Assembly (NCBI GenBank): GCA_035280265.1 | Contig: DATEGE010000143.1 | Span: 2,307-66,306, forward strand | Reading direction: 5' to 3' | Source: Gemmatimonadales bacterium | Lineage (GTDB): Bacteria > Gemmatimonadota > Gemmatimonadetes > Gemmatimonadales > GWC2-71-9 | Length of the DNA stretch: 64,000 nt | Shown here: positions 50,803 to 64,000 of the stretch, one piece after another | Numbering within the stretch: the first letter of the stretch is position 1 | Layout: every line of letters starts with the position of its first letter | The notes under the pieces: model-generated | The model's input: only the letters and a program-made list of their open reading frames with translations | Told to the model about the DNA's origin: nothing | Database searches by the model: none | Program-made: the position numbers and the translations under genes

Positions 50803-51814
50803 CCCGCGTGATCGCCGCCTCGTGCTCGGCGAAGGTCGCGGAAAAAATGTGCTTGCCGTCCGGCTGTGCCACGAAGTAGAGAAACGGCACGTCCGCCGGG
50901 TACAGCGCCGCCGCCAGGCTCGCGCGCCCCGGCTGACTGATGGGGCCGGGGGGGAGCCCCGCGTGCAGGTAGGTGTTGTAAGCAGACCGCACGGCGAGGT
51001 TCCTTTCCCACACGCGCTTCAGCCGCCGGCCGTATGCATAACTGACGGTCGGGTCCGCCTCGAGTCGCATCCCCCGCTTCAGCCGGTTGCGATACACCGC
51101 CGCGATGAACGGCCGGTCGGGGTCATAGCGGACCTCGGCCTCGACGATCGACGCGAGCGTGACCAGTTGATGCCGGGACAGCCCCAGGGTGTCGAGCCGC
51201 CCCTGCCACTCGGGGCCCCACTGTTGCGTGAACTGGTGCGTCATCACCCGCACGAGCTCGCGCACCCCGATGTGCAGCGGCAGCAGGTAGGTGGTAGGAA
51301 ACAGGTAGCCTTCTGCGTTCGGCGTGCCGTTCGGCACGCTCAGCCCGGCGAGCAGCTCGGGGTCTTCCGCCGCGGCGACGAACGAATCGCGCGGAATGCC
51401 CAAGTGCGCCTCGGCGAGCTCCGCTACTTCGACGAGTCGCAGCCCCTCGCGCACGGTGAAGCGTTGCTCGACGCCGCGACCACGCTCGAGGGCGGCGACG
51501 ACGTCGGACCACGACTCGTCCTGGCGCAGCAGATAGACGCCGCTCTTCAACGAGCCCCCGAGCCCGCGCAACGTGGCGTACAAGCGGAACATGCCAGGAT
51601 GTCCGATCACGTGGTTCGCCGTGAGGGAATCGACGGCGGCATCGAGCGACGCGCCTGGCGGGATAGTCACGGTGACCCGGGGACCATCGGAAGCGCCGCA
51701 AGCTGCCGTCGCGCAGACTAGCAGAACTCGGAACGTGGAACGCGCAACGCGGAACTGAGCATGCAAGGTCGCCGGCCTGTTCCGCGTTCCGCGTTCCGAC
51801 TTCCGCGTTTTCAT
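50753..51814 (-). CDS. mltG: endolytic murein transglycosylase MltG (YceG family)
   Basis: N-terminal basic tail plus hydrophobic anchor, ...LASIVEAEV..., YNTYLHAGLPPGPISQPG. ATGA overlap with the ruvX stop. Confidence 0.88.
   Translation of the reverse strand: MKTRKSERGTRNRPATLHAQFRVARSTFRVLLVCATAACGASDGPRVTVTIPPGASLDAAVDSLTANHVIGHPGMFRLYATLRGLGGSLKSGVYLLRQDESWSDVVAALERGRGVEQRFTVREGLRLVEVAELAEAHLGIPRDSFVAAAEDPELLAGLSVPNGTPNAEGYLFPTTYLLPLHIGVRELVRVMTHQFTQQWGPEWQGRLDTLGLSRHQLVTLASIVEAEVRYDPDRPFIAAVYRNRLKRGMRLEADPTVSYAYGRRLKRVWERNLAVRSAYNTYLHAGLPPGPISQPGRASLAAALYPADVPFLYFVAQPDGKHIFSATFAEHEAAITRVKQLRRAARASRPPGR
51728..51807. repeat. hairpin of GGAACGC / GTTCCGC heptamer arrays inside the 5' end of mltG
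   Basis: TCGGAACGTGGAACGCGCAACGCGGAAC (51728..51755), 23-nt loop, GTTCCGCGTTCCGCGTTCCGACTTCCGCG (51779..51807). 22 of 28 positions are complementary. Confidence 0.85.
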
Positions 51815-52257
51815 TGCGCGGAGCCTCGTCTCGCGTCGAGATAGTGCTGCAGCATCACCGTCGCCGCGAGGGAGTCCACATCCTCCTTGCGACCCCGAGT
51901 GGTCCCACCCATTTCGCGGACCGCTCGCAGGGCGCGGGCGCTCGTAAGACGCTCGTCCCAGAGCTCGACCGGCTTCCCGGAGGTGCGCGCGATCTCGCCG
52001 GCAAGGGCGCGCGCGGCGCGCGCGGCTTCACCTTCCGTGCCTGCCGCATCGAGGGGCAGGCCGACCACCACGCCGGTCACGCCGTGCTGCTCGAGCAGAG
52101 TGAGAAGCTGGCGCATGGGGAATCGCTTGCCGGCGCGGCGGGTGAGGGTGACGAGGGGCTGGGCGATGAGTTGGGATTCGTCCGACAGCGCGACGCCAAT
52201 GCGCTGTTGGCCCCAATCGACGCCAACCAACCGTCCTCGGGTCGGCCCGTCCGTCAC
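51811..52257 (-). CDS. ruvX: Holliday junction resolvase-like nuclease RuvX (YqgF)
   Basis: [17 protein letters not shown]..., VVGLPL..AGTEGE, ...DERLTS. Confidence 0.9.
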
Positions 52258-53513
52258 CCTTGGGCCATCGTCTGGAAGAACTCGACGTTCGTCTTCGTCC
52301 GCTTGAGGCGCTCGAGCAGGAACTCGATGGCCTCGACGGGTGGCATGTCCGCGAGGAAGTTGCGCAGCAGGTAGACCTTGTTGAGCTCTTCCTTACCGAG
52401 CAGGAGCTCTTCCTTGCGAGTGCTGGTGCGCTGCACGTCGATGGCGGGGAAGGTGCGCCGCTCCGCGATGCGGCGGTCGAGGATCACTTCGGAGTTGCCG
52501 GTCCCCTTGAACTCTTCGAAGATGACCTCGTCCATGCGGGAGCCGGTGTCGATGAGCGCGGTGGCCAGGATCGTGAGCGACCCGCCGCCCTCGATGTTGC
52601 GCGCCGCGCCGAAGAACCGCTTGGGCTTCTGCAACGCGTTCGCGTCCACACCGCCCGAGAGGATCTTCCCCGAGTGCGGCACCACGACATTGTGCGCCCG
52701 CCCGAGGCGTGTGATCGAGTCGAGCAGGATCACCACGTCCTTGCCGTGCTCCACCAGGCGCTTCGCCTTCTCGATCACCATGTCCGCGACCTGGACGTGC
52801 CGGTCGGCCGGCTCGTCGAACGTCGAGGAGATCACCTCGACGTTGGTCCCCTTGACGTTCTCCTCCATGTCGGTCACTTCTTCGGGCCGCTCGTCGATGA
52901 GCAGCACGATGAGGTAGATCTCGGGATGGTTTTCGATGATGGAATTGGCGAGCTTCTGCATGAGGATCGTCTTCCCAGCCTTGGGCGGCGACACGATGAG
53001 CCCGCGTTGTCCCATCCCGATCGGGCTCAAGATGTCCATCACGCGCATCGAGAGGTCGCCGTCCTTACGCTCCAGCTTGATGCGTCGCTCGGGGTAGCGG
53101 GGACGGAGGTTGTCGAACGCGACGCGGTGCTTCGCCTTCTCGGGCTCGTCGCCGTTCACGACCTCGACCTTCAGGAGGGCGAGGTAGCGCTCGCCCTCTT
53201 TGGGAGGCCGCACCTGGCCCATGATGGTATCGCCGGTGCGCAGGTCGAACCGCTTGATCTGGCTGGGTGAGACGTAGATGTCGTCGGGTCCGTACAGGTA
53301 GTTCCAGTCGGGACTGCGAAGGAAGCCGTAGCCCTCGGGCAGGATCTCGAGGACGCCCTCGCCGCGCAGCACCGTATCCGAGTCGAGGAGCGATTGCTCG
53401 ATGCGAAAGATGAGATCCTGCTTGCGGAGCCCTGAGTAGTTGGTGATGTTCAGGGTTTCGGCCATCGCGTGCAGTTCCGCGACGGATTTCCTCTTCAGTT
53501 CAGCGATATCCAC
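52254..53513 (-). CDS. rho: transcription termination factor Rho
   Basis: [21 protein letters not shown] (Rho N-terminal), GYGFLR, PPKAGKT (Walker A), [20 protein letters not shown]. Confidence 0.97.
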
Positions 53514-53652
53514 GTGTGTCTTGCCTCGTAGCTCTACGGCGGGCGAAACCCCGGGGTGGGGGAGTGAGCGCGTTGAAAATGGAATCTGGGAAGTCGAAGG
53601 AGTGCGAGAGAGCTATAGTAGGGGTGTCAGGACCCGGCGTCAAGGGCGCGCC

Positions 53653-54759
53653 ATGGCGCTGAGCGACTACTTGGTGGCGTGGCGCACGGCGCAGCTCCCT
53701 GACCGGGAAGTCATTGACGCGCTTGTAGATCCGGCGCACGCCGGCCCATCCCCACAGCTCGCCGCTGAGCTCGCGCACTGGCCCGGCGGTTACTACTGGT
53801 CGGACGAGCCGGGCGGGCGCCATCTCGTGCTGACCCGGCCGGAAGGCCGGCCCCGGGAGCGCTGGGCCCTCCACGTCCTCCTCTTCCTCGCCACCCTCTT
53901 CACCACGACCTTCGTGGGGGCGGTGTTCGCGGGCCGGATACCGCTCGATCCCAACCCGATCGCCCTTATCACCGGCACGTATCCGGTCCCGGCGGGCTTC
54001 GTGGGCGCCTGGGCTTCGGGGTTCCGCTTTTCCCTGCCGCTGCTCGCCATCTTGCTGTGCCACGAGTTCGGGCATTACCTCACGGCACGCCGTTATCAGC
54101 TCGACGTCTCGCCGCCCTATTTCATTCCCGTCCCGTTCGTGCCCTGGTCGATCGGCACGATGGGCGCGTTCATCCGGCTCCGCACGATCTTGTCGGACCG
54201 CCGCCAGCTGCTGGACGTAGGCATCGCGGGACCGATCGGCGGATTGCTCGTTGCACTCCCCGTGCTGTGGTTCGGATTGCGCTTGAGCCACCCCGCAACG
54301 GGCGGCGAGGTCGGGCTGTTCCTGACGATGGGGGCTGACCCCAACTACCCCCTCGGTGACTCGCTGCTGACGCTGGGACTGCGCCGGCTGATTCACGGCG
54401 CCACCCCCGGCATCGTGCTCGACCCGATGGGCTTTGCCGGATGGCTCGGGATCATCGTCACGATGTACAACCTGCTGCCGATCTCTCAGCTCGACGGCGG
54501 ACACATCCTGTACGCGGCGCTGCCCCGCTGGCATCGACGCATCGCGCTCGCGTTCTGGGTGCTGATCGTGCTGCTCGGCGCGGTGTGGAAGGGGTGGTTG
54601 CTGTGGGGGTTCTTGGTGTTGCTGTTATCGCGCGGCCGCCTCGGGCATCCCGCGGTGCTCGACGCGCAGCGGCCGCTGCCCCCGTCCCGTCGAGTACTTG
54701 CCTGGGCAGCGCTGGTGCTTTTCGTCGTGACGTTTGCGCCGGTACCGTTCCGACTGTAA
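53653..54759 (+). CDS. site-2 protease family (peptidase M50) membrane metalloprotease
   Basis: LCHEFGHYL (HExxH) and NLLPISQLDGGHILY (NxxPxxxLDG). Polytopic. ATG 53653 inside ORF 53440..54759. Confidence 0.85.
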   Translation: MALSDYLVAWRTAQLPDREVIDALVDPAHAGPSPQLAAELAHWPGGYYWSDEPGGRHLVLTRPEGRPRERWALHVLLFLATLFTTTFVGAVFAGRIPLDPNPIALITGTYPVPAGFVGAWASGFRFSLPLLAILLCHEFGHYLTARRYQLDVSPPYFIPVPFVPWSIGTMGAFIRLRTILSDRRQLLDVGIAGPIGGLLVALPVLWFGLRLSHPATGGEVGLFLTMGADPNYPLGDSLLTLGLRRLIHGATPGIVLDPMGFAGWLGIIVTMYNLLPISQLDGGHILYAALPRWHRRIALAFWVLIVLLGAVWKGWLLWGFLVLLLSRGRLGHPAVLDAQRPLPPSRRVLAWAALVLFVVTFAPVPFRL

Positions 54760-54764
54760 GGCAG

Positions 54765-54846
54765 GTTGGTGGAGGATGGTGGAGGTCAGCACGTCGGCGG
54801 AGCAGCCTCCACCATCCTCCACCAACTTCCACCAACCTCCACAACC
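54765..54846. repeat. perfect 21-bp hairpin of GGTGGAGG / CCTCCACC decamer words plus two extra word copies
   Basis: GTTGGTGGAGGATGGTGGAGG (54765..54785), 20-nt loop, CCTCCACCATCCTCCACCAAC (54806..54826), then CTTCCACCAA CCTCCACAAC. Confidence 0.9.
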
Positions 54847-54905
54847 TGCAGTATTGCGTAAGTCCGCGCTTCTTATATCTTTGCCAAAACCAGCCCTAGG
54901 CCCGC

Positions 54906-55190
54906 ATGCCCGGACAACCGGCCAGGTACAACGCACCCGATTCGAACGAAGCGGTCGTCCACGACCTCCCCCCCATACGATTCGACGGACAACTCATCCC
55001 CATTCGCCTCCAGGTGCGCCGGTCCGAGGACGCTATCTGGCGGGGCCGGGTCCTGTTCGGCGCGCCGGACACCGAGGCCGAGCGCGCTACGGCCGAGATC
55101 TTCTGTGCCACCTCCGAGCCGGACCTGTGGCAGGCGGTTCGGGATCTGCGGGACCATCACCTGCGCGATCTGTATCGCTCGCTGCTCTAG
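54906..55190 (+). CDS. hypothetical protein (94 aa)
   Basis: ORF abutting the next gene (TAG then ATG). No family recognised. Confidence 0.45.
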   Translation: MPGQPARYNAPDSNEAVVHDLPPIRFDGQLIPIRLQVRRSEDAIWRGRVLFGAPDTEAERATAEIFCATSEPDLWQAVRDLRDHHLRDLYRSLL

Positions 55191-55382
55191 ATGGGGGACG
55201 CTGCGGACCGGCTCAGCAAGCTTCGGCACGACCTGTCGAATCCGTTGGCCGCTATTCTCGCCGAAACTCAGCTGCTGCTGCTCAGCGCCGAGAAGTACGA
55301 CGCCGAGACGGTGGGGGGCCTGAAGCAGATCGAAGCGCTCTCCCGCAAGATGCGCGGCATCCTCGAAGCCTTGGACAGATGA
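55191..55382 (+). CDS. free-standing HisKA/DHp-like domain protein (63 aa, no ATPase domain)
   Basis: MGDAADRLSKLRHDLSNPLAAILAETQLLLLSAEKYDAETVGGLKQIEALSRKMRGILEAL. H-box-like RHDLSNPLAAI followed by a second helix. A terminator hairpin directly follows. Confidence 0.55.
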   Translation: MGDAADRLSKLRHDLSNPLAAILAETQLLLLSAEKYDAETVGGLKQIEALSRKMRGILEALDR

Positions 55383-55383
55383 A

Positions 55384-55404
55384 CCGGTGAGTCGCCCTCA
55401 CCGG
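55384..55404 (+). terminator. stem-loop after the small DHp gene (no clear U tract)
   Basis: CCGGTGAG-TCGCC-CTCACCGG: 8-bp perfect stem starting 2 nt after the stop codon. Confidence 0.5.
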
Positions 55405-55521
55405 CCGCGGTTCTCACCTCCCGCGCGGTGGTGGTACCATCCCGGTCGGGCGCTGCGCGCGAGCCCTCCGTGGTGGCGCTGGCCGCGCCGGCGCCCCTCA
55501 TTCCCGCGTTGACGAGCCGCC

Positions 55522-56289
55522 GTGGCGACCTTCCAGCTGCGGCCGTTGTCCACCGGTGAGATCCTCGATGGCGCCCTGGCGCTGTTGCGCCGCTACTTCG
55601 CGCTGCTCTTCGGCGTCGCCGTGGTGTGCGAGGGTTTGCCCACCGCCGTCGACGTGTACGTCGATCTGTCGGGTGGCAGCTCCTCGCACGCGGGGTTGGC
55701 GCTCCTCGATCGGCTACTGAGCGCGGTGGGGACGCTGCTCGTGGTCGGGGCAACCGTTCGCGCCGTCTCGCGGGCTTACCTGGGGGGCGTACCGGAGCTG
55801 GGCGACTCGATCCGCTACGCCGGCGAGAAGCTGGGAGCCGTGTTTGGCGCCTCACTCGTGAGCAGTCTCGTGGTGCTGCTCGCGTCCCTGGCCCTCGTGA
55901 TTCCCGGAATCGTGGTGTTCTGCGGCTACTCGGTGACTGCTCAGGTGGCGGCGCTCGAGACGCCCCCGTCCTCGAGCGACGCACTGCGTCGTTCCTGGGA
56001 GCTCACCAAAGGGTTCAAGGGCAAGGCGTTCGTCTTATGGGTCGTCTCCTTCGGTCTCATCCTGCTGGTGGTCGCCGCCATCGGCTTTCTCGGTGGGGTG
56101 GTCTCGGGCGCGGTGGGCGGGTTCGAGCCGGTCGTCACAGTGCTCCTCGCCTTCATTGGCCTGCTCCTGTATCCGCTGTTGTCCTGCGTGTTCACCCTTT
56201 TTTACTACGACCTGCGCGTTCGCAAGGAAGGCTTCGACCTCGAGGTGCTGAGCCAGCAGCTGGGCATCGCCGCGCGCCTTCAGCCGTGA
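55522..56289 (+). CDS. polytopic membrane protein, paralog A of 58149..59030 (family unknown to me)
   Basis: RPLSTGEILDGALALLRRYF..., SWELTKGFKGKAF, ...FTLFYYDLRVRKEGFDLEVLSQQLGI. Several TM spans. Confidence 0.7.
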   Translation: MATFQLRPLSTGEILDGALALLRRYFALLFGVAVVCEGLPTAVDVYVDLSGGSSSHAGLALLDRLLSAVGTLLVVGATVRAVSRAYLGGVPELGDSIRYAGEKLGAVFGASLVSSLVVLLASLALVIPGIVVFCGYSVTAQVAALETPPSSSDALRRSWELTKGFKGKAFVLWVVSFGLILLVVAAIGFLGGVVSGAVGGFEPVVTVLLAFIGLLLYPLLSCVFTLFYYDLRVRKEGFDLEVLSQQLGIAARLQP

Positions 56290-58106
56290 GCGGCGGCGGG
56301 CCCCTTCCAGTACGCCCAGCCGCTGGCGCCGTAGATGAGCAGGAATACCGCTGACAAGGCGCTGGTGAGGTACTTGTAGGCCGCGGGCGCGTCGCTCGCC
56401 GACAGCAATCCCTCGATAGTGCCAGCAATCGCGAGCAACGTCACCACGGCGCCGACCATGCGCGCCGCGATCCGGCCCTCGACCACGAGCGCGTCACGAC
56501 GCGTGCGGTCGCCCGGCAGGAGCAATGCGCCCGCCAGACGGAACCCCGCCCCGCCGGCGATGAATATCGCGGTCAGCTCGAGAATGCCGTGGCCCGCCAC
56601 GAACGTGGCGAGATAGCCGCCTGCGTGGTAGTTGACGAACACGCCGAATCCGGCACCGAGCATCAAGCCGTTGGAGACGAGCACCATCACCGTCACCACG
56701 CCGCCCAGAAAGCCGCCCACGAACGCCCAGAAACCGATCCGGATGTTGTTGCTGATGATCGCGGAGGCGATGACCGGCAGCTCGTCCTTCGGTGATTCGG
56801 CGTATCCCACGCCCTGGGCCTCGTTCGCCGCCGCTTCCCGTGCCCGGCTCACCATGATGGGCGGCACGAGCTCGTCCTGCAGGTCGGAGTGAGCGCGGAT
56901 CAGGCCATACCCGATGGCCGCCGGGGCGGCAAACAGCACGAACGCGGCGGTCACATAGGCCCACGACTGGACCACGGCCGCGGGGAAGTCCCGCACCAAG
57001 TATCGGAACAGCGGCGCGGGCCGGCGCCCGCGTGCGCGGTACAGGGCGTTGTGCCCGGCGCTCACAACGCGCTCGAGATACTCCACGACCCGCGGATCGA
57101 CACCGTAGGTCCGCGCCCGCGCCAGGTCCGCCGCGACCTCGCGATAGCGGGCCGCGAACGCCGGGATCTGCTGCGACGCAAGGCGGCTCACGCCGGAGCG
57201 CTCGACCTGCGTGGCGAGGGTGTGGAACGCCTCCCACGCCTCGCGCTTGCGAGCGACGAACCGCTCTGCGGTGACCGTCGTGCGCCCCGCCACATCGGGG
57301 CGGGCGCGCGTGGCGAACCGGCTGCGCCGCTTGCGTTGCTCCTCGGCGTGCAGCTCGGCGAGGTAGGCGTCGGCGTCCGCGCTGCGGCGCGGGACGCGGT
57401 CTTGAAACCGCCGGGCCAGTTCCGAAGCCAGTCGCGTTTGCACGGCGGGGTCCAGATCGGCGGCGCGGCTGAGGTACTGATCCAATAGACGGAATTCGTC
57501 GTCCGCCAGCTCCGGCGGGCCCGTTTCGACCGCGTCGTCGGTCGCGGTTGCTGCGGGGGCGGGCGCCAACCCCCAATCGATTGGGCGGTCGCGCACGACG
57601 ATCGTCCCGGCCACGAGGTCGCCGAAGCGCTGATTGCGCCGGTGGAGAAAGACCATGGTGAGTCCGGGAAGGAACGGCAACAGCGGGAAGTAGCAGTCGA
57701 GCAACCGAAACAGACCGCGCACGACGGCGGCGGTCGGCGTGATGGCGTGTCCCGTCTCCATCACGACACGAATCCCGAGCAGCTGCTTGCCCAGGGTGCG
57801 GCCGCCGTTGAGGGCCTCGAGCAGCACGAAATACCCGAGAAAGGCGAACGCGAAGACGAAGATGACGACGGCGGCCAGCCACCCCCCCAGGGTTCCCCCC
57901 ATGTCTGTGAAACCGATCAGGGTCAGCAGCCAGACCAGAAACAGTAGTCCCGCGCTCGCCACCAGTGTGTCCACGAGCGCCGCGGCGGCGCGCGAGCCAA
58001 GGCCCGCGAGCTCGAGATGAACCGCAACGTGCTCCGGGGTCTCGATCCCGAGCTGCTGGCGCAGCGTCGCTACGGGCGACGGCGGCTCTCGCGCGGGCGC
58101 GTTCAC
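56280..58106 (-). CDS. fusion membrane protein: N-terminal RDD domain + C-terminal SpoIIM/DUF95-like domain
   Basis: RAAAALVDTLV...RTLGKQLLGIRVV...RFGDLVAGTIVVRD (RDD). C-terminal ...IISNNIRIGFWAFVGGFLGGV...GHGILELTAIFIAGGAG (SpoIIM-like). Confidence 0.7.
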   Translation of the reverse strand: MNAPAREPPSPVATLRQQLGIETPEHVAVHLELAGLGSRAAAALVDTLVASAGLLFLVWLLTLIGFTDMGGTLGGWLAAVVIFVFAFAFLGYFVLLEALNGGRTLGKQLLGIRVVMETGHAITPTAAVVRGLFRLLDCYFPLLPFLPGLTMVFLHRRNQRFGDLVAGTIVVRDRPIDWGLAPAPAATATDDAVETGPPELADDEFRLLDQYLSRAADLDPAVQTRLASELARRFQDRVPRRSADADAYLAELHAEEQRKRRSRFATRARPDVAGRTTVTAERFVARKREAWEAFHTLATQVERSGVSRLASQQIPAFAARYREVAADLARARTYGVDPRVVEYLERVVSAGHNALYRARGRRPAPLFRYLVRDFPAAVVQSWAYVTAAFVLFAAPAAIGYGLIRAHSDLQDELVPPIMVSRAREAAANEAQGVGYAESPKDELPVIASAIISNNIRIGFWAFVGGFLGGVVTVMVLVSNGLMLGAGFGVFVNYHAGGYLATFVAGHGILELTAIFIAGGAGFRLAGALLLPGDRTRRDALVVEGRIAARMVGAVVTLLAIAGTIEGLLSASDAPAAYKYLTSALSAVFLLIYGASGWAYWKGPAAAHG

Positions 58107-58148
58107 CTGAACATCTTATCGCGACCAGTCACGTGGAGCGAGTGGTCC

Positions 58149-59030
58149 ATGACCGACATCCGGCCCCTCAACTTCGGAGAAATCCTCGACGGCGCGTTGG
58201 TGATCTATCGTCGGCATTTCGGCCTGTTTCTGAGGCTCGCGATGGTCGTGCTGGCGGGGCCCGTCCTCCTCCTGGTATACCTGGCCACGCGCTGGCTCCG
58301 CTTTCTGGTGGTGCAGTCCCCGGCCGCATTGGCGCAGACGCCCGACATGGGAGCGGTGCTCCTCATCATCCCCGTGTTCATCCTGTATTACCTGGCAAGC
58401 CTCGTGCTCACGGCCGGCACGGTCCGCATCATCGCGGATTCCTACCTCGGCCGTGCGCCACGGCTCGTGGATGCCCTCTCGCTCGGGCTGTCGAGGCTGT
58501 GGGGACTCGTGGTAGTCGGACTGGGCAAGGGGATCATCGTGTTCCTGGTGATGGTCGGGATCGTCATCGTCATCGCGGTGGCTGGAGTGATGCTACGGGG
58601 CACCGGGGTCGGCGGTGTCCTGCTGCTCGTGGCGGCGGGGCTCGCCGGCCTCTGGCTGGTGGGTCTCATTCTGTGCGGCTACGGCGTCACCACGCCGGTC
58701 TTGGTGCTGGAGGACCTGACGAGCGCGTTCGATGCCTTTGGTCGCTCCTGGGAGCTGACGCGCGGCTTCAGGGGCAAGGTGTTCGGGCTCGCGATCGTGA
58801 GCATTCTCCTGTTCAATGCGCTGCCCATCTGGGTGCTGCAGGCGTTGTCGGCCGCGGCGCGCATCCCCGCTCCAGCGGTATCGATCGGGCTGGCGGCACT
58901 TGCGGCCGTCGTGCCCGTGCTGCTGACGCCGGCTGTGTCAGCGGTCTGGACCCTCATGTACTATGACCTGCGCGTGCGGCGTGAAGCGTTCGACCTCCAG
59001 GTGTTGAGCCGGCAGCTGGGGATCGTCTGA
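58149..59030 (+). CDS. polytopic membrane protein, paralog B of 55522..56289
   Basis: MTDIRPLNFGEILDGALVIYRRHF..., SWELTRGFRGKVF, ...WTLMYYDLRVRREAFDLQVLSRQLGI. Confidence 0.7.
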   Translation: MTDIRPLNFGEILDGALVIYRRHFGLFLRLAMVVLAGPVLLLVYLATRWLRFLVVQSPAALAQTPDMGAVLLIIPVFILYYLASLVLTAGTVRIIADSYLGRAPRLVDALSLGLSRLWGLVVVGLGKGIIVFLVMVGIVIVIAVAGVMLRGTGVGGVLLLVAAGLAGLWLVGLILCGYGVTTPVLVLEDLTSAFDAFGRSWELTRGFRGKVFGLAIVSILLFNALPIWVLQALSAAARIPAPAVSIGLAALAAVVPVLLTPAVSAVWTLMYYDLRVRREAFDLQVLSRQLGIV

Positions 59031-59038
59031 CTGCCCCG

Positions 59039-59677
59039 TTGATGCTCGTGGCGCAGGGCGTCGGGGTGGTCCCCCCTCCCGCGGACTCGCTGCGCCGGGC
59101 CGTGACCGAGGTGTTCGCGCGCCCCGAGTATCGCTGGGCGACCGGCAAGAGCCCGGGGCAGTGGGTCGTCGAGCAGATCCTCCGCTTCCTCGACTGGCTC
59201 GGGCGCGCCGAAACCAGTCACCCGGCGGCGTTCAAAGCGCTGCTGGTTGTGCTGGTCGTCGCACTATTGGTCATGCTCGCGCATATGGCCTACGTGGTGT
59301 GGCGGATCACCCGACCGACCGCGCGGACGCCGGGCGCCACCGCGACACCCGCGCTCCTCGTGGAGGACGCGCAAACGCACCGTGCTCGCGCCGACCAGCT
59401 CGCCCGGACCGGGCGCTACGCGGAGGCCCTGGCGCACCGCTTCGTGGCGCTGCTGCTGGAGCTCGAACGGCGCGAGGCGTTGACGTTCCACCCATCCAAG
59501 ACTCCGGCGGAGTACGTGGGCGAGGCGCGGCTCGACGCAGCGGGCCGGGCGTCCCTCGGCCAGCTCGTGATGCAGCTGTACCGGCACGTGTTCGCCGCCG
59601 CCCCCTGCGACGAGCAGGCCTACCGCGAATTCGCGGCGCAAGCCGACCTCGTGTTCCAACATGTCGCGGCGGCTTGA
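59039..59677 (+). CDS. DUF4129 domain membrane protein
   Basis: One TM (ALLVVLVVALLVMLAHMAYVVW), then ...ADQLARTGRYAEALAHRFVALLLELERREALTFHPSKTPAEY...LYRHVF. Typical DUF4129 layout from memory. Confidence 0.55.
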   Translation: MMLVAQGVGVVPPPADSLRRAVTEVFARPEYRWATGKSPGQWVVEQILRFLDWLGRAETSHPAAFKALLVVLVVALLVMLAHMAYVVWRITRPTARTPGATATPALLVEDAQTHRARADQLARTGRYAEALAHRFVALLLELERREALTFHPSKTPAEYVGEARLDAAGRASLGQLVMQLYRHVFAAAPCDEQAYREFAAQADLVFQHVAAA

Positions 59678-60914
59678 GGTCGCGCTCGTCCTGCTGTTCG
59701 CCATGGCCCTCGCTGCCGTCATTTGGGCCGGGCGGCGCGGCGCAGGCGACAAGACTGACTTCGATTTCCGCGCGTCCACGCTGGTCTCCGGCCCCGAGGG
59801 CAGCCGGGCGCTCTACGACGTGCTCGCCCGCTTGCGCGTGCCCGTCGAGCGGCGGCGCACGCCGCTGTTCGATTTCGCGAGCGACTCGGCGCGCCGGCCG
59901 GCGATGTTGGTGGTCCTCGATCCGCCGCTCGCGCTGACCGGCGCCGAACTGGACCAAGTCGCGCGGTTCGTCCGCGAGGGCGGTGCCGTGGTCGCGGCCA
60001 ACAGCGGTGGCGGGATCACGTCGTGCGTCGGCTGGCGGACGGCGTACCGATTCTTCCTGCGCGGCGACAGTCTCGCGGTCGTGTCCCCTGATCCCGCCCT
60101 CACCCTGCCGGCGGTGACGAACTACCTCAAACCCCCCGACGCCGTGCAGCAGGCTCGCCGCCGGGTGCGTGGGGCGGGTGACGGTGGGAACGACAGCGAG
60201 GAGGATCATTGCGACATCCTCGCTCCCCTGGCGCAAGACACGCTGCTGCGGTTACGGGACGGCCGCCCCGCGGCGTTGCGGATGCGCTACCCGAGGGGGG
60301 GGAGCGTGACGCTGGTTGCGGACGCCGGATACTTCCGCAATCGCACCTGGCGCGACACCGATGTGCCCGAGTTCGTCACACCGCTACTCGTTCCGACGCG
60401 TCGCGGCGCGGTAGTGTGGGACGAATACCACCAGGGGTTCGGCCACGGGCGGTCCCTCGACGGGGCGGTCGCGGCGTGGCTCCGGCAGACACCGATCGGC
60501 TGGGCGGTGCTACAAGTCGTCGCGGTGCTGGTCATCGGCCTCGCCGTGGCGGGAGTGCGCTTCGGGCCGGCGCGCTCCGCCATCGAGCGGCGTCGCCGCT
60601 CCCCCCTGGAGCACCTGGAGGCGCTCGCGGCTGGGCTCGAAGGCGCGGCCGGTGTAGACACCGCCGTCGCGCTCACGGTCTCGAGTCTGCGGCGGCGGTT
60701 GGGTCGCGCCGGCATGTTGGCTCCCGAGGAGCAGCGCGCCTGGCTCACCACGCTGGAGCTGGCGCTGCCGACGGCCGCCGGTCGGAACGCGGTGCGGCGG
60801 CTGCAGCGCATCCTGAGTCAACCCGGCGGATCCGAGCGCGCGCTCGCGGCCGCCCAAGCCGTGGAGGACGTGTGGCTGGAGCTTCGCCCGGCGCAGACGC
60901 CCGTCGCATCCTAG
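59661..60914 (+). CDS. DUF4350 domain protein
   Basis: N-terminal TM, ...GPEGSRALYDVLARL...LVVLDPP..LTGAELDQVARFVREGGAVV..., second TM near residue 280. Overlaps both neighbours. Confidence 0.5.
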   Translation: MSRRLEVALVLLFAMALAAVIWAGRRGAGDKTDFDFRASTLVSGPEGSRALYDVLARLRVPVERRRTPLFDFASDSARRPAMLVVLDPPLALTGAELDQVARFVREGGAVVAANSGGGITSCVGWRTAYRFFLRGDSLAVVSPDPALTLPAVTNYLKPPDAVQQARRRVRGAGDGGNDSEEDHCDILAPLAQDTLLRLRDGRPAALRMRYPRGGSVTLVADAGYFRNRTWRDTDVPEFVTPLLVPTRRGAVVWDEYHQGFGHGRSLDGAVAAWLRQTPIGWAVLQVVAVLVIGLAVAGVRFGPARSAIERRRRSPLEHLEALAAGLEGAAGVDTAVALTVSSLRRRLGRAGMLAPEEQRAWLTTLELALPTAAGRNAVRRLQRILSQPGGSERALAAAQAVEDVWLELRPAQTPVAS

Positions 60915-61828
60915 AGTCGTTGCAACGAGTGATTCTCGGTCAGGAGGCGGCAACGCGCGAGGCGGTGATCTGCCTGCTCGCGCGCGGCCACGTGCTGCTC
61001 GAGGGCGTGCCGGGCACCGCCAAGACGCTGCTCGTGCGCACGCTGGCGCTCGCGCTCGACGTCAAGTTCCAGCGCATTCAATTCACGCCGGACCTGATGC
61101 CCGCGGACATCACCGGGGTGAGCCTGCTGACCGGGTCGCATGAGTTCACCTTCCGCCCCGGACCGATCTTCGCCGACTTGCTCCTGGCGGACGAGATCAA
61201 CCGCGCACCGGCCAAGACGCAGGCGGCGCTGCTCGAGGCGATGCAAGAGCGCACCGTCACGGTGGACGGCCTCGGCCACGCGCTGTCGGCGACCTTCACG
61301 GTGTTCGCCACGCAAAACCCCGTCGAGTTCGAAGGGACGTACCCGCTGCCCGAGGCCGAGCTGGACCGCTTCATGATGAAGGTCCTGGTGGGGTATCCCG
61401 CGGCGACCGACGAGCAGGGCATCCTTGCGCGCACCGTCGCCGGATTCGAGGCCGACCGGCCGGCGACGTACGGCGTCACGCCGGTGACCAACGCCGCCGG
61501 GTTGGAGAGCCTGCGGCGGGCCGTGGACGCCGTGCGCGTCGAGCCGCAGATCACTGCGTACATCACGGCGGTGGTGCGGGGGACGCGCGATGCCGCCTCG
61601 TTGACCCTCGGTGCCAGTCCGCGCGCCGGCGTGGCCCTGCTCAAGGCGGCCCGTGCCGCGGCTGTGGTGGACGAGCGGGACTACGTCATCCCCGACGACG
61701 TGAAGCGGCTGGCGCCTGTCGTGCTGCGCCACCGGGTGAGCGTCGCCCCCGAGCTCGAGCTCGAAGGCGTGACACCCGACGCCGCGCTCAAGGCCATCCT
61801 CGATCGTGTCGAGGTGCCGACGGCGTGA
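60872..61828 (+). CDS. MoxR-family AAA+ ATPase
   Basis: VILGQEAATREAVICLLARGHVLLEGVPGTAKT (Walker A), LLADEINRAPAKTQAALLEAMQE (Walker B/sensor), TFTVFATQNP. Start uncertain: GTG 60872 chosen. Confidence 0.88.
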   Translation: MAGASPGADARRILESLQRVILGQEAATREAVICLLARGHVLLEGVPGTAKTLLVRTLALALDVKFQRIQFTPDLMPADITGVSLLTGSHEFTFRPGPIFADLLLADEINRAPAKTQAALLEAMQERTVTVDGLGHALSATFTVFATQNPVEFEGTYPLPEAELDRFMMKVLVGYPAATDEQGILARTVAGFEADRPATYGVTPVTNAAGLESLRRAVDAVRVEPQITAYITAVVRGTRDAASLTLGASPRAGVALLKAARAAAVVDERDYVIPDDVKRLAPVVLRHRVSVAPELELEGVTPDAALKAILDRVEVPTA

Positions 61829-63219
61829 TCCTGATCCTGATCGGCTGCCTCGTCGCCGCTGCGTTTTGGGCGGTGTGGTTCGCGGTCGGGACGTACGCCG
61901 GCGTGCTGTGGACCCGGCGCGGCCTTCGCATCGCTGTCGTGATCGCCGGGCTCGGCCTGGCGGGATTGTGGGTGCCGCGGGCGCTCGATCTCATGCTGCT
62001 CGCCGACTTGCTGCTGCTCGTCGCCGTGTGGATCGACGCGCGTCGGGCCGCGGTCCCCGGGTCGGCGCAGCTCACGGTGATCCGGGAGGCGCCGCCGGCG
62101 TTCTCCGTGGGCCGATCGGCCGAGGTGACCTACCGGTGGGTGAACACCGGCGGGCGCCGGGCGCGACTGCGGCTGCGCGAGACGCGTCCCGACCTGCTCG
62201 GCGGGACCCAGCCGCCGCGGCGGATCGTGGTCCCCACGCGGGGCGAGGCGCGCGAAACCGTGCCCGTGACCCCGCGGCGACGGGGACGGGAGCGGGCCGG
62301 CGCCTTCGTGGTCGATTCGCACGGCCCCTTCGGCTTGGGCCTGCGGCGCGCCCGGATCGAGCTCCCGTGGGACGCGGCCGTATATCCGCCGCTCGTGTCG
62401 GTGCGGCTGCGGGCGTCGGTCGCGCGGGCGCAGCGGCGTCGCGAGCAGGGGATCACACCGCTACGCCAGATCGGGGAGGGGCGGCTGTTCGAATCGTTGC
62501 GCGAATGGGTGCCGGGGGACGACCCGCGGCACATCGACTGGAAGGCCACGGCGCGCCGCCGCAAGGTGATCACACGCCAGTACGAAGCGGAGCGGCGCCA
62601 GCAGGTGCTGCTGGTCCTCGACACCGGCCGCCTCCTCACCGCTGAGATCGCGGGCGTGTCACGCCTCGACTACGTCGTCCAGGCGGCGCTCGAACTCGCG
62701 TACGCGGCGGCGCAACATGACGACAACGTCGGTGTGATGGCGTTCGCGGACGGCGTGCAGCATTTCGTCCCGCCCCAGCGAGGCCGGCTCGGTGTCAAGC
62801 GTGTGCTCGACGTGCTCGCGGTGGTCGAGCCCACGCTGGTCGAGCCGGACTATCCCGGTGCGTTTCGCTATCTCGCGGCGCGCAATCGCAAACGCGCCCT
62901 CACTGTGTTGTTCACCGACGTGATCGATCGATTCGCGTCGGAGGCCTTGGTCGCGAACATCGCCTCGCTCCGTCCGCGGCATTTGCCGCTCGCCGTCACG
63001 CTCAAGAACCCGGAGCTCGAGCGCGCAGCGGCGCAGCGGCCGGTCGAGGCGCACCAGGCGTTTCGCAAGGCGGCGGCGGAGGAGCTCCTGGGGGCGCGGG
63101 ATCAGGCGCTCGGGCACATGCGGCGGGCGGGGGTGTTGGTGCTGGACGTGCCGCCTGACAAGGCGGCGCAGGCCGTCGTGGCCAAATACCTCGACTTGAA
63201 GCGCCGGGGACGGCTGTAG
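61825..63219 (+). CDS. DUF58 domain protein (MoxR partner, vWA-like)
   Basis: GTGA overlap with moxR. Two N-terminal TMs, ...LREWVPGDDPRHIDWKATARRRKVITRQYEAERRQQVLLVLD... Confidence 0.8.
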   Translation: MILILIGCLVAAAFWAVWFAVGTYAGVLWTRRGLRIAVVIAGLGLAGLWVPRALDLMLLADLLLLVAVWIDARRAAVPGSAQLTVIREAPPAFSVGRSAEVTYRWVNTGGRRARLRLRETRPDLLGGTQPPRRIVVPTRGEARETVPVTPRRRGRERAGAFVVDSHGPFGLGLRRARIELPWDAAVYPPLVSVRLRASVARAQRRREQGITPLRQIGEGRLFESLREWVPGDDPRHIDWKATARRRKVITRQYEAERRQQVLLVLDTGRLLTAEIAGVSRLDYVVQAALELAYAAAQHDDNVGVMAFADGVQHFVPPQRGRLGVKRVLDVLAVVEPTLVEPDYPGAFRYLAARNRKRALTVLFTDVIDRFASEALVANIASLRPRHLPLAVTLKNPELERAAAQRPVEAHQAFRKAAAEELLGARDQALGHMRRAGVLVLDVPPDKAAQAVVAKYLDLKRRGRL

Positions 63220-63287
63220 CCGAGGAAATCAGGGCGTCCGGAGCCGGCCGTTATTAAATTGACCCCACCTTCGCCGGACTCGAGCGC

Positions 63288-64000
63288 ATGCACTGCAGTC
63301 GCGGCCTGGCCGCCCTGGTACTGCCGTTCACGCTTGTAACGGTCACGACCTGCGTTTTTCCCACTGAGCACGACGCCGCTGTGCACGTCAGCATCCGGCC
63401 GCTCCGGATTCTGCTGCGCGGCAGCGACTCGACCGCCAAGGCGACGGCTTGGCAGATCGTCGCTCCAGGCGACTCTCAGAAGCTCCTCAACGTGGCGTTC
63501 GTCTGGACGAGCAGCAATGCCTCCGTCGCCACGGTCAACCAAGCGGGGCATATCGTGGGCGTCAACTCGGGAACCGCGATCATCCGCGCGGCGGCGAGGA
63601 ACTTTGACGCTGGGGCGCTGCCGGGCGTGGACACGCTGCGCGTATCCGCTCCGCTCGAGGTCGACAGTGTGCGCCCCAAGCTCGTGAGGTACGGAGAGCG
63701 GGTGACGATCTACGGCGTCGGCGTGGATTCCATCTTCTCGGCATCGCTGGCCGGCGCGAGCCTGATTCACGTGCCGTTCTCGGACACGGTGTTCCACGTC
63801 GGCACGGCCCGGACCCGGTACTGGGTGCCGCCGCCCGCGACGACCGACTCTCTCTTCTTCCTGGGGTTCTCTGGGGGCCAGGGGGTGTTCGGCTTCGTTC
63901 ACGGCGACACGACGCACGTGATCGAGCGCGACATCTACGAGCCGGACGACACGGTTCCCGCCGCCGTCGACCTCGACGCCGCGCGACCGTTTCCCAATAC
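63288..64000 (+). CDS. lipoprotein with bacterial Ig-like (Big_2-type) and IPT/TIG-like domains, 3' end outside the window
   Basis: Own translation: MHCSRGLAALVLPFTLVTVTTC (lipobox-like), ...VWTSSNASVATVNQAGHIVGVNSGTAIIRAAA (Big_2 hallmark). Not in the ORF track because it is truncated. Confidence 0.6.
   Translation, partial: MHCSRGLAALVLPFTLVTVTTCVFPTEHDAAVHVSIRPLRILLRGSDSTAKATAWQIVAPGDSQKLLNVAFVWTSSNASVATVNQAGHIVGVNSGTAIIRAAARNFDAGALPGVDTLRVSAPLEVDSVRPKLVRYGERVTIYGVGVDSIFSASLAGASLIHVPFSDTVFHVGTARTRYWVPPPATTDSLFFLGFSGGQGVFGFVHGDTTHVIERDIYEPDDTVPAAVDLDAARPFPN

Follow-up and report, generated by a model that had tools for sequence, protein, structure and literature searches.

A conserved MoxR-DUF58 gene module with membrane partners in Gemmatimonadota and a possible role in envelope homeostasis

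What might a MoxR-family ATPase do in a gene cluster whose other members are embedded in the membrane? The question is raised by positions 54906-63219 of the window, a 64,000-nt stretch of a Gemmatimonadales MAG. A sequence-only reading had described an overlapping chain of co-directional genes next to an RDD-SpoIIM fusion gene and two related membrane proteins. We re-derived these ORFs and their overlaps at the same coordinates, and an independent gene caller (two ENA contigs, identical proteins) gave the same starts and stops, except that it began the DUF4129 gene at ATG 59042 rather than at the TTG 59039 of the ORF list. The genes are as follows.

54906..55190, plus strand: 94-aa ORF, soluble, probably outside the module
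55522..56289, plus strand: paralog A, 255 aa, second copy of the head-gene membrane protein
56280..58106, minus strand: RDD-DUF8413-SpoIIM fusion, 608 aa (Pfam)
58149..59030, plus strand: paralog B, 293 aa, polytopic membrane protein at the operon head
59039..59677, plus strand: DUF4129 protein, 211-212 aa (Pfam PF13559)
59661..60914, plus strand: DUF4350 protein, 417 aa (Pfam PF14258)
60872..61828, plus strand: MoxR-family AAA+ ATPase, 318 aa (AAA_3 and AAA_lid_2)
61825..63219, plus strand: DUF58 protein, 464 aa (PF01882)

The overlaps measure 17 nt (DUF4129/DUF4350), 43 nt (DUF4350/MoxR) and 4 nt (MoxR/DUF58), and this overlap or close packing of the co-directional genes suggests translational coupling. 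The fusion gene converges on paralog A with a 10-nt overlap (56280..56289) and diverges from paralog B across an intergenic gap of only 42 nt. Pfam searches returned RDD, SpoIIM, DUF4129, DUF4350, AAA_3 and DUF58, the families that had been proposed. Hydropathy analysis revealed hydrophobic segments in all proteins of the region except MoxR and the 94-aa product, in agreement with the earlier view that every described component other than MoxR is membrane-embedded. The 94-aa ORF at 54906, which had been included without description, is probably not a module component. Searches of this ORF against Pfam, NCBIfam and PADLOC gave no match; the protein is conserved in many Gemmatimonadales loci (47-90% identity), always on the rho/M50 side and at times 2-3 kb from the fusion gene, and is missing from many deeper-branching loci that retain the module.

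The MoxR protein matches AAA_3 (E 2e-60) and AAA_lid_2 (E 2.3e-21) in Pfam, and its translation carries intact Walker A (GVPGTAKT), Walker B (LLLADEINR) and sensor-1 (ATQNP) motifs. Its closest solved structure is 2r44 (E 4e-67); the Nonomuraea and Rhizobium copies share 54% and 46% identity, respectively, with this MoxR. Characterised MoxR-vWA pairs (RavA-ViaA, NorQ-NorD, CbbQ-CbbO and CoxD-CoxE) remodel client complexes and provide precedents for remodelling. MoxR-DUF58 pairs were expected to be partnered with vWA proteins; here the DUF58 protein is itself the vWA-fold partner, and it lacks the canonical MIDAS serines. It matches PF01882 (E 7.7e-33) and, marginally, VWA_2 (E 3.8e-6; 27.9 bits, cut-off 27). 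A membrane hairpin at the N-terminus leads into a large, basic and soluble portion of vWA-like fold. The first of the protein's three hydrophobic stretches (residues 1-28) is not kept in other lineages, so translation may in fact begin about 25 codons further downstream. In place of DxSxS, the MIDAS position has D-T-G-R-L, and in an alignment of four lineages D266 and G268 are invariant and the MIDAS serines absent. These serines are the usual means by which vWA adaptors grip their clients, and thus the adaptor model may not carry over unchanged.

Two further proteins sit between the operon head and MoxR. The DUF4129 protein (PF13559, E 1e-6, residues 135-200) has one transmembrane helix at about residues 59-91 by hydropathy, and its C-terminal helical domain is probably cytoplasmic. 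By hydropathy and domain searches, the DUF4350 protein (PF14258, E 1.5e-12) begins with a signal-anchor at its N-terminus, followed by a GIFT/flavodoxin-like domain that is extracytoplasmic. A second transmembrane helix (276-305) then leads into a helical tail on the cytoplasmic side, about 110 aa long, with a conserved RFGP motif at its start. Its relatives form 1379 clusters (50% identity) at E<=1e-3, and residues G47, D221, N227, W281, R300 and G302 are invariant across phyla.

The fusion protein has an RDD membrane domain (E 1e-18, residues 33-167) and a multi-pass SpoIIM/DUF95 domain (E 2.6e-29, residues 388-569), connected by DUF8413, a helical linker of some 200 aa in the cytoplasm; precomputed domains are PF06271, PF28475 and PF01944. 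In 57/57 Gemmatimonadota loci where RDD and SpoIIM both occur, one open frame spans them, and this fusion was seen in Gemmatimonadota only. Rhizobium, Paracoccus, Nonomuraea and Bernardetia encode RDD and SpoIIM as separate adjacent genes. The fusion runs RDD then SpoIIM, unlike the alphaproteobacterial order (SpoIIM then RDD) and the divergent pair of Actinomycetota, and therefore is not a simple read-through. During engulfment in B. subtilis, the SpoIID/SpoIIP machine that remodels peptidoglycan has SpoIIM as its membrane scaffold, which fits an envelope role.

The two paralogs had been singled out for three common sequence blocks. We found RPL(S/N)xGEILDGAL, SWELT(K/R)GF(K/R)GK and (F/M)YYDLRVR(K/R)E(G/A)FDL(E/Q)VLS(Q/R)QLGI in both proteins, which are 34% identical over their full length (E 5e-38), and the blocks are the invariant signature of the whole paralog family (23 and 46 aligned sequences). 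Paralog B had no match of its own in a Pfam search, and paralog A matched GPDPase_memb and DUF975 below threshold. The head gene of the Nonomuraea operon is homologous to the family (hhalign probability 99.2%) and matches PF10110, PF25231 and PF24400; paralog B is best described as GPDPase_memb/DUF7847/DUF7544-like. In 70/71 Gemmatimonadota loci the gene immediately upstream of DUF4129 encodes a family member, and a second copy occurs in 4/71 assessable related loci (L001, L003, L022 and L027), with a fragment in L008. The second copy in L027 is placed elsewhere, between M50 and the 94-aa ORF. Paralog B occupies the ancestral position, only one paralog is ancestral to the operon, and paralog A is a recent, clade-limited duplicate. 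AF2 models of paralog A (pLDDT 82.6, pTM 0.78) and of the fusion (pLDDT 67) are all-helical. Neither had a significant match in the PDB (best for paralog A, CysZ, TM 0.43-0.49, E 1.3; best for the fusion, E 0.47), and so structure gives no functional clue. Paralog-family genes and SpoIIM/RDD pairs are also found away from any MoxR.

We surveyed 80 Gemmatimonadota genomes and counted over assessable loci only. The order RDD-SpoIIM (minus strand), then paralog, DUF4129, DUF4350, MoxR and DUF58, is kept in 56/57 to 73/73 of them (DUF4129 and MoxR each 73/73, DUF58 64/65, RDD-SpoIIM 56/57), and the linkage persists where DUF4350 identity falls to 33%. This linkage is far above chance. One locus (L058) has DUF4129-DUF4350-MoxR-DUF58 with no adjoining RDD-SpoIIM or paralog; the module is a four-gene core that can stand alone, and the remaining parts are accessory.

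The sequence-only reading had placed this arrangement in actinobacterial and other genomes too, and the linkage indeed extends well beyond this MAG. Nonomuraea gerenzanensis (Actinomycetota) has all seven families in one cluster. Among 80 metagenome contigs anchored on the paralog family, most carry the same chain (DUF4129 48/57, DUF4350 46/48, MoxR 31/33, DUF58 23/26, SpoIIM 14/21, RDD 11/17), with SpoIIM and RDD absent downstream in about one third of assessable contigs. Rhizobium and Paracoccus replicons read DUF805-DUF4129-DUF4350-MoxR-DUF58-SpoIIM-RDD. DUF4129 was confirmed by Pfam in the Nonomuraea and Rhizobium operons; the Paracoccus gene, annotated 'hypothetical', is assigned by its position. 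The alphaproteobacterial DUF805 protein stands in place of the paralog, with no homology detected between it and the paralog family. M. chelonae, M. abscessus and M. tuberculosis carry the Rv3689-Rv3695 equivalents of the module (PMC8191103). The module is present in at least three bacterial phyla, represented by Gemmatimonadota, Actinomycetota and Alphaproteobacteria, and combines a cytoplasmic AAA+ ATPase with membrane proteins of six kinds.

The most reasonable inference is an ATP-driven machine that assembles or remodels a membrane complex. MoxR would be a cytoplasmic hexameric AAA+ ATPase, with DUF58, tethered to the membrane by its N-terminal hairpin, as its vWA-fold adaptor. The two may dock on cytoplasmic parts of their membrane partners, for which the DUF4129 domain, the conserved DUF4350 tail and the DUF8413 linker are candidate sites. 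ATP hydrolysis would then drive assembly, disassembly or a conformational switch of a hetero-oligomeric complex whose GIFT-like DUF4350 domain is displayed on the membrane's outer face, and which also contains the RDD and SpoIIM unit and the small polytopic GPDPase_memb/DUF7847-like protein. The process served would most likely be cell-envelope or cell-division homeostasis, and we put this whole reading at slightly short of an even chance. The accessory parts vary, from a DUF805 head in Alphaproteobacteria to the bare core of L058, and this variation counts against it.

Operons of many archaea combine DUF4350, MoxR and vWA genes in the arCOG01314 neighbourhood, which is predicted to encode a secretion or membrane-remodelling complex (Makarova et al., 2015; PMC5898192). 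The bacterial module could likewise be a novel secretion or surface-assembly system, with DUF4350 and its membrane partners as an export conduit or platform for surface proteins or glycans that MoxR and DUF58 assemble or gate. The case for secretion in the archaeal operons drew on an analogy to GldG from the gliding/type IX apparatus (PMC5898192), and a weak match of DUF4350 to the IFT52 GIFT domain (E 4e-4) and the membrane location of most components fit this idea. However, the archaeal partners behind the model, S-layer-like Ig-domain proteins and PF07760, are absent here, where DUF4129, RDD, SpoIIM and the small polytopic protein take part instead. With no conserved cargo-gene candidate adjoining the module in the three phyla, and no component like a known secretin, translocon, ABC or other transporter by sequence or fold, we consider secretion unlikely.

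Metal-centre maturation is a frequent task of characterised MoxR-vWA pairs (NorQD, CoxDE and Mg-chelatase relatives). By analogy with metalloenzyme maturation by NorQ/NorD and CoxD/CoxE, MoxR and DUF58 might activate, or insert a cofactor into, a cation/proton transporter or metal-dependent membrane enzyme formed by RDD, SpoIIM and/or the paralog. MoxR matches chelatase models weakly, an RDD protein of Halobacillus andaensis is reportedly a Na+(Li+,K+)/H+ antiporter, and a DEYHHG motif and two cysteines outside the membrane are invariant in the DUF4350 proteins of Gemmatimonadota. These His/Cys motifs are lineage-specific, however, being absent from Actinomycetota and Alphaproteobacteria, and every lineage has a degenerate MIDAS metal site in DUF58. 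The genes next to the module do not consistently include one for a metalloenzyme or transporter, and neither AF2 model significantly matched a transporter. Ion or metal homeostasis is accordingly improbable.

MoxR ATPases have been described as chaperone-like, and the module could be a general quality-control device that extracts, holds or refolds damaged membrane proteins under stress or when growth is slow, without serving a particular envelope target. In BCG, Rv3691 was scored as required during slow growth and is induced under it (PMC2685279), Rv3689 has a strong CRP site (PMC4477654), and expression of the mycobacterial cluster shifts as a block (PMC8191103). In M. chelonae, however, glpFK and other neighbours shift too (PMC8191103), so the shift may be regional. 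Nor would a general chaperone require six dedicated, co-evolving membrane partners whose order is fixed across phyla, and we regard this explanation as quite improbable. MoxR modestly matches bpMoxR, the model for MoxR-vWA-beta-propeller ternary systems (E 2.1e-9), which might suggest a MoxR-vWA kind of anti-phage or conflict system. This is very improbable and largely refuted: only MoxR, marginally (E 5e-4), matched PADLOC models among the eight proteins, effector domains are absent, and the stable place beside housekeeping genes (rho, ruvX, mtrAB) in hundreds of genomes is unlike defence islands.

Full-text literature searches returned no functional study of the module, as the sequence-only reading had supposed. 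The scored requirement for Rv3691 in slow-growing BCG (PMC2685279) also counts in favour of the envelope or division reading. The operon of Nonomuraea and of about 38 metagenome contigs is divergent from an adjoining mtrA-mtrB-lpqB; in Actinomycetota, the mtrAB two-component system controls homeostasis of the cell wall and of division. On the H37Rv map, the Mycobacterium module presumably lacks this neighbour. The adjacency does not occur in Gemmatimonadota or alphaproteobacterial loci and, being limited to one phylum, may have been inherited as a chance feature of gene order. A pull-down of the M. tuberculosis divisome protein Rv0954 yielded both the SpoIIM-like Rv3694c and the RDD protein Rv3695, along with PbpA and LamA (PMC8093794); this co-IP is a single list entry. 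From this shared pull-down and the 57/57 fusions we infer that RDD and SpoIIM work together. A related archaeal neighbourhood has already been described (PMC5898192). The new leads are the mtrA-mtrB-lpqB adjacency in many Actinomycetota and the association of Rv3694c and Rv3695 with a divisome protein, both of which point toward a possible role of this module in envelope or division homeostasis.

The stretch 54906-63219 was read from an ORF listing and, independently, by calling genes on two ENA contigs with identical proteins, and the two agree. A 100% identical protein at NCBI shows that the window derives from a Gemmatimonadales MAG.

Genes at 54906-63219, each from the ORF listing and the gene call; "Pfam" marks those also supported by a Pfam match
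54906-55190, + strand: 94-aa protein of unknown family
55522-56289, + strand: paralog A, 255 aa
56280-58106, - strand: RDD-SpoIIM fusion, 608 aa (Pfam)
58149-59030, + strand: paralog B, 293 aa
59039 (or 59042)-59677, + strand: DUF4129 protein, 211-212 aa (Pfam)
59661-60914, + strand: DUF4350 protein, 417 aa (Pfam)
60872-61828, + strand: MoxR, 318 aa (Pfam)
61825-63219, + strand: DUF58 protein, 464 aa (Pfam)

The gene overlaps quoted in the sequence-only reading proved exact, and Pfam confirmed each of its domain assignments. The 608-aa protein matches RDD (E 1e-18) and SpoIIM (E 2.6e-29; PF01944, residues 388-569, 102.7 bits against a cut-off of 26.9), and newer precomputed Pfam data assign the linker of about 200 aa to DUF8413 (PF28475). 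PF13559 is the sole domain of the DUF4129 gene at 59039-59677 (E 1e-6), and the DUF4350 protein matches its family at E 1.5e-12. MoxR carries AAA_3 (PF07726; 202.8 bits, cut-off 27, E 2e-60) and AAA_lid_2 (PF17863; 75.7 bits, cut-off 22.7), and its closest solved relative is the MoxR protein 2r44 (E 4e-67). Translation of 60872-61828 gives intact Walker A (GVPGTAKT), Walker B (LLLADEINR) and sensor-1 (ATQNP) motifs, from which MoxR is predicted to be catalytically competent. Directly 3' of it, with a 4-nt overlap, lies the DUF58 gene, whose product matches PF01882 (114 bits, cut-off 23.4, E 7.7e-33) and, marginally, VWA_2. Hydropathy analysis placed hydrophobic segments in all module proteins except MoxR, as had been proposed; the 94-aa ORF, like MoxR, has none. 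A promoter and terminator scan of 54700-63500 returned nothing above shuffled expectation. The operon is real and tightly packed, and one gene diverges from it.

We compared this arrangement with that of relatives in a DUF4350-anchored scan that took one genome per GTDB species and kept the best 80 of 447 relatives, all Gemmatimonadota. Presence was scored by tblastn of the window proteins, only loci long enough were counted, and DUF4350 identity ranged down to 33%. Both DUF4129 and MoxR were found in 73/73 assessable loci and DUF58 in 64/65, adjacent to MoxR in each of the 64; RDD-SpoIIM was present in 56/57, and a paralog-family gene stood directly 5' of DUF4129 in 70 of 71. The one clear exception is a Gemmatimonadota MAG chromosome (CP070716.1, 2.87 Mb; compared locus L058:9600-13500) that has solely DUF4129-DUF4350-MoxR-DUF58, with paralog-family and RDD-SpoIIM genes absent within 10 kb and upstream ORFs without Pfam match. 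Because this locus retains the four genes alone, they look like the core of the module. These data show a four-gene core with accessory membrane partners.

Searches of replicon databases extended the comparison to other phyla. The DUF4350 protein gave no tblastn match to plasmids. The fusion, searched by tblastn against PLSDB, matched separate, adjacent RDD and SpoIIM genes, annotated as 'RDD family protein' and 'stage II sporulation protein M', on 51 Rhizobium replicons and also elsewhere. The annotated genes of both Paracoccus aminovorans and Rhizobium sp. NZLR1 run co-directionally as DUF805, hypothetical, hypothetical, MoxR, DUF58, SpoIIM and RDD, and the Rhizobium 'hypothetical' pair is DUF4129 and, at a sub-threshold score, DUF4350. 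The Nonomuraea gerenzanensis record (11.85 Mb), which was submitted as a 'plasmid' and has no annotation in PLSDB, encodes in order a GPDPase_memb/DUF7847/DUF7544 protein, DUF4129, DUF4350 (E 1e-29), MoxR, DUF58, SpoIIM on the opposite strand, and RDD. The linkage was also tested from the paralog side, in a scan of JGI metagenomes that used an alignment of the paralog family headed by the Nonomuraea protein. Downstream of the paralog anchor, HMM annotation of the 80 resulting contigs (GC 0.59-0.77) recovered DUF4129 in 48/57 assessable contigs, DUF4350 in 46/48, MoxR in 31/33, DUF58 in 23/26, SpoIIM in 14/21 and RDD in 11/17. All seven families therefore occur in one cluster in the window, in Nonomuraea and in metagenome contigs. 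Some actinobacterial-type contigs also have an MprF-like (lysyl-phosphatidylglycerol-synthase-TM) gene directly 3' of RDD (L117:15280-16371, L096 and L097). The linkage first seen in this one genome clearly holds outside it: the module is conserved in Gemmatimonadota, Actinomycetota and Alphaproteobacteria, and coincidence can be excluded as its explanation.

The borders of the module were drawn from the same comparisons. The 94-aa protein is soluble and the product of a real gene (47-90% identity across many Gemmatimonadales), and it has no family match. Its gene always lies between rho/M50 and the module, at times 2-3 kb from the latter; because its linkage tracks rho/M50 and not the module, we rejected it as an eighth component. 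Directly after it, a public gene call places a 63-aa ORF with a weak HisKA match (55191-55382, + strand) in the 330-nt gap before paralog A; this ORF may be spurious. Upstream, 51811-54759 holds ruvX (-), rho (-) and an M50 (RseP-like) peptidase gene (+), and their synteny with the module is common to many Gemmatimonadales. The gene 3' of DUF58 (63288-64000, + strand, continuing into compared locus L086:10884-12885) encodes a protein of 538 aa that has a hydrophobic segment near its N-terminus. This protein is without a Pfam match on record, is unrelated to Bat components and is conserved in close relatives only (L001-L003, L021 and L047); next comes the gene of a PEGA-domain Ser/Thr protein kinase.

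Full-length alignment of paralogs A and B gives 34% identity (E 5e-38). The three motif blocks that the sequence-only reading had picked out are found in both and, in alignments, constitute the invariant signature of the entire family. Paralog A has sub-threshold Pfam scores to GPDPase_memb and DUF975, and its close homologues carry precomputed matches to PF25231 (DUF7847). A full second paralog occurs in four close-relative loci, at a different position in one of them (L027), and a fragment is present in L008. The single copy at the head of the operon in deeper-branching genomes is closer to paralog A than to paralog B, which indicates that A and B arose by recent duplication; the operon copy would then have diverged and acquired an insertion. 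The Nonomuraea head protein is homologous to the window paralogs (hhalign against the Gemmatimonadota profile, probability 99.2%, E 2.6e-19), and the alignment takes in each of the three motif blocks. At the same position, the alphaproteobacterial loci encode a DUF805 membrane protein (Rhizobium, L081:4239-4685; Paracoccus, L085:1974-2414), which we rejected as a divergent family member (hhalign probability 2.3%). As DUF805 takes the same place without being detectably related to the paralog family, one small polytopic subunit seems to have been replaced by another, non-homologous one. An AF2 model of paralog A, built like that of the fusion from alignments of database homologues, is a confident all-helical membrane protein (pLDDT 82.6, pTM 0.78) without significant neighbour in the PDB, the top structural match being CysZ (TM 0.43-0.49, E 1.3). 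A paralog-family gene also stands alone, outside the module, in Tsukamurella.

RDD and SpoIIM form a single open frame in 57/57 Gemmatimonadota loci that hold both. Since the domain order of the fusion is unlike the gene orders found elsewhere, it points to functional coupling, not to a read-through accident, and this natural fusion argues that RDD and SpoIIM function as a single unit. The AF2 model of the fusion is of moderate quality (pLDDT 67) with a helical cytoplasmic linker. Foldseek returned nothing from the PDB at E <= 0.001 for either AF2 model, and PDB searches by sequence and by profile gave no match for DUF58, the paralog family or RDD-SpoIIM. In its C-terminal half the fusion has a clear SpoIIM (PF01944) domain, which likens it to Bacillus subtilis SpoIIM of the SpoIID-SpoIIM-SpoIIP engulfment machinery, but in the window this domain shares a protein with RDD and is associated with MoxR. 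SpoIIM is a scaffold for peptidoglycan hydrolases. No SpoIID or SpoIIP gene adjoins the module in neighbourhood Pfam annotation and gene calls, and sporulation is not known in Gemmatimonadota. The two domains also occur apart from MoxR and DUF58: on a Bernardetia (Bacteroidota) plasmid, an RDD gene and the gene of a 617-aa protein with a SpoIIM domain are divergent (L083:6978-9756), with neither MoxR nor DUF58 within 9 kb, and a Halococcus (haloarchaeal) replicon has a solitary RDD gene. The Bernardetia SpoIIM protein has a C-terminal extension of about 330 aa.

The family set of the window is also that of mycobacterial Rv3689-Rv3695 (the moxR2 region), an equivalence that rests on a published orthologue table covering Rv3689 (membrane protein), Rv3691 (DUF4350), Rv3692 (MoxR), Rv3693 (DUF58), Rv3694c (SpoIIM-like) and Rv3695 (RDD) (PMC8191103). 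The Nonomuraea cluster, its domains all confirmed, matches this layout and has DUF4129 after the head gene and before DUF4350. Actinomycetota encode SpoIIM and RDD separately, 3' of DUF58 and with SpoIIM on the opposite strand, whereas the window has one fused gene, upstream and divergent, and an extra paralog copy.

Archaeal operons of DUF4350 (arCOG01314), MoxR (COG0714) and a vWA protein have been described, in which the DUF4350 domain is GldG/flavodoxin-like and for which a novel secretion or membrane-remodelling complex was predicted (Makarova et al. 2015; PMC5898192). In agreement with that fold assignment, the DUF4350 protein of the window matches the IFT52 GIFT domain in a PDB search (E 4e-4). 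Like the window, the archaeal sets encode a vWA protein, MoxR and a membrane-anchored DUF4350 whose GldG/flavodoxin-like domain is extracellular, but they also include membrane proteins with S-layer-like Ig domains (arCOG02884 and others). In place of these, the bacterial module has DUF4129, RDD, SpoIIM and either DUF805 or a GPDPase_memb-like protein, and Pfam placed no S-layer-like Ig-domain protein (COG4743/PF07760) among the ORFs of 54906-63219. Because the partner sets differ (Ig proteins versus DUF4129, RDD, SpoIIM and the paralog), the bacterial module is a different variant from the archaeal one. That it serves as a secretion system, one of the two functions predicted for the archaeal operons, seems quite improbable to us.

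Other MoxR systems resemble the module in part. In the MoxR-DUF58-transglutaminase (TgpA/YebA-type) triad, MoxR and DUF58 stand beside a membrane protein with a C-terminal DUF4129. The window shares this association, but here DUF4129 forms a small separate protein that crosses the membrane once, another protein supplies the extracytoplasmic domain in the form of a GIFT-like DUF4350, and no window ORF has a Pfam match to Transglut_core. Similarly, the Bat (Bacteroides aerotolerance) operon, MoxR-DUF58-BatA-BatB-BatC-BatD, shares an AAA_3-type MoxR followed by DUF58, but Pfam found neither BatA/BatB-type vWA membrane proteins nor a TPR protein in the module, and the partner sets are wholly different. 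Phage defence can be excluded, as the sole PADLOC match is a marginal one to MoxR (mad8, E 5e-4) and the other seven proteins have none. The module is therefore best described as a conserved neighbourhood, known but unstudied, and a variant of the MoxR-DUF58/vWA kind. The RDD-SpoIIM fusion sets its Gemmatimonadota form apart, as the duplicated head gene does the clade to which the window belongs.

Alignments of Gemmatimonadota DUF4350 proteins revealed invariant C122, C184 and D254-E255-x-H257 (the DEYHHG motif) on the extracytoplasmic side. The cysteines and the DEYHHG motif are absent from the Nonomuraea, Rhizobium and Paracoccus proteins and are thus lineage-specific, so a Cys-His-Glu catalytic site of a glutamine-amidotransferase-like fold was rejected as a general mechanism. 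In Gemmatimonadota these residues could form a disulfide and a metal site particular to the lineage. A function of the whole module in ion or metal homeostasis is about as improbable as one in secretion. We also considered the DUF4350 tail as a cryptic DUF4129 (RRRSPLEH versus SKTPAEY) and rejected it (hhalign probability 0.1%). The DUF58 protein of the window has D-T-G-R-L as its first MIDAS element, and the pattern is D-x-G-x-x across four lineages (Gemmatimonadota, Nonomuraea, Rhizobium and Paracoccus); D266 and G268 are invariant in all four, and the serines of a canonical MIDAS (DxSxS ... T ... D) are missing from each. Because this MIDAS is degenerate, the usual metal-mediated grip of the vWA adaptor may not apply.

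The neighbours of the module differ between phyla. We grouped those ORFs of the metagenome contigs (L089-L167) that had no assignment into clusters, checked them against Pfam, and found that the operon is often divergent beside genes for an OmpR-type regulator, a HAMP/HisKA kinase and an LpqB-type lipoprotein, which correspond to mtrA-mtrB-lpqB; an IF-2B/MtnA-like gene sometimes intervenes. Approximately 38 of the 80 contigs have a strong MtrA match 5' of the paralog gene. In Nonomuraea (NZ_LT559118.1; L082:1-2000 and L168), an MtrA 88% identical to the metagenome query is directly divergent from the head gene. This adjacency is confined to Actinomycetota and absent from the Gemmatimonadota and alphaproteobacterial loci examined, where rho, ruvX, an M50 protease or unrelated genes adjoin the module instead. 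MtrAB-LpqB governs cell-wall and division homeostasis in Actinomycetota, and the adjacency supports an envelope role by association only. It has no mention in the searchable literature, in which the only co-mention of mtrA and MoxR concerns an unrelated Bat-type MoxR in Saccharopolyspora.

The sequence-only reading knew of no assigned function, and full-text searches likewise yielded no functional study of the module. Individual mycobacterial components have surfaced in other work: Rv3694c and Rv3695 co-purify with the divisome protein Rv0954, beside PbpA and LamA (PMC8093794); slow-growing BCG requires and induces Rv3691 (PMC2685279); ChIP of CRP gives a strong peak at Rv3689 (PMC4477654); and one cycloserine-resistant mutant carries an Rv3690 substitution together with a second mutation (bioRxiv 10.1101/114116).

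If the module works like the MoxR-vWA pairs already characterised, MoxR and its membrane-tethered partner DUF58 would remodel or assemble a complex of the partner membrane proteins, with the GIFT domain of DUF4350 exposed on the outside. The ATP-driven membrane-complex machine suggested in the sequence-only reading is supported with refinements, and we give MoxR-DUF58 remodelling of a membrane complex slightly less than an even chance. A specific role in the envelope or in division, to which the scaffold role of SpoIIM, the Rv0954 pull-down and the mtrAB-lpqB adjacency point, is roughly one-third as credible as remodelling in general. Its fullest form, which we regard as unlikely, is a widespread and unrecognised envelope-remodelling machine of non-sporulators, in which MoxR would act via DUF58 to drive a SpoIIM/RDD scaffold and the outward GIFT domain, and so control wall hydrolases or synthases at the division site. 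In Actinomycetota such a machine would act under MtrAB-LpqB or feed it, and sporulation SpoIIM would be a specialised offshoot of an older housekeeping apparatus. General membrane-protein quality control is less probable than any of these readings.

MoxR-vWA pairs are among the commonest prokaryotic AAA+ systems with unknown clients. The variant described here retains a fixed set of six membrane partner families in at least three phyla, and Mycobacterium tuberculosis has it (Rv3689-Rv3695), making it a well-defined and pathogen-relevant set of DUF proteins. The defined partner list, the natural RDD-SpoIIM fusion and the recurrent position beside mtrAB-lpqB in Actinomycetota, all added here, make that set testable by naming proteins to co-purify, mutants to construct and phenotypes to score (septation, wall integrity, and osmotic or beta-lactam stress). 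If the link to the envelope and division is true, it would at once provide a role for the RDD, SpoIIM/DUF95, DUF4129, DUF4350, DUF58 and DUF7847-like families, and would hint at the origin of the SpoIIM of sporulation.
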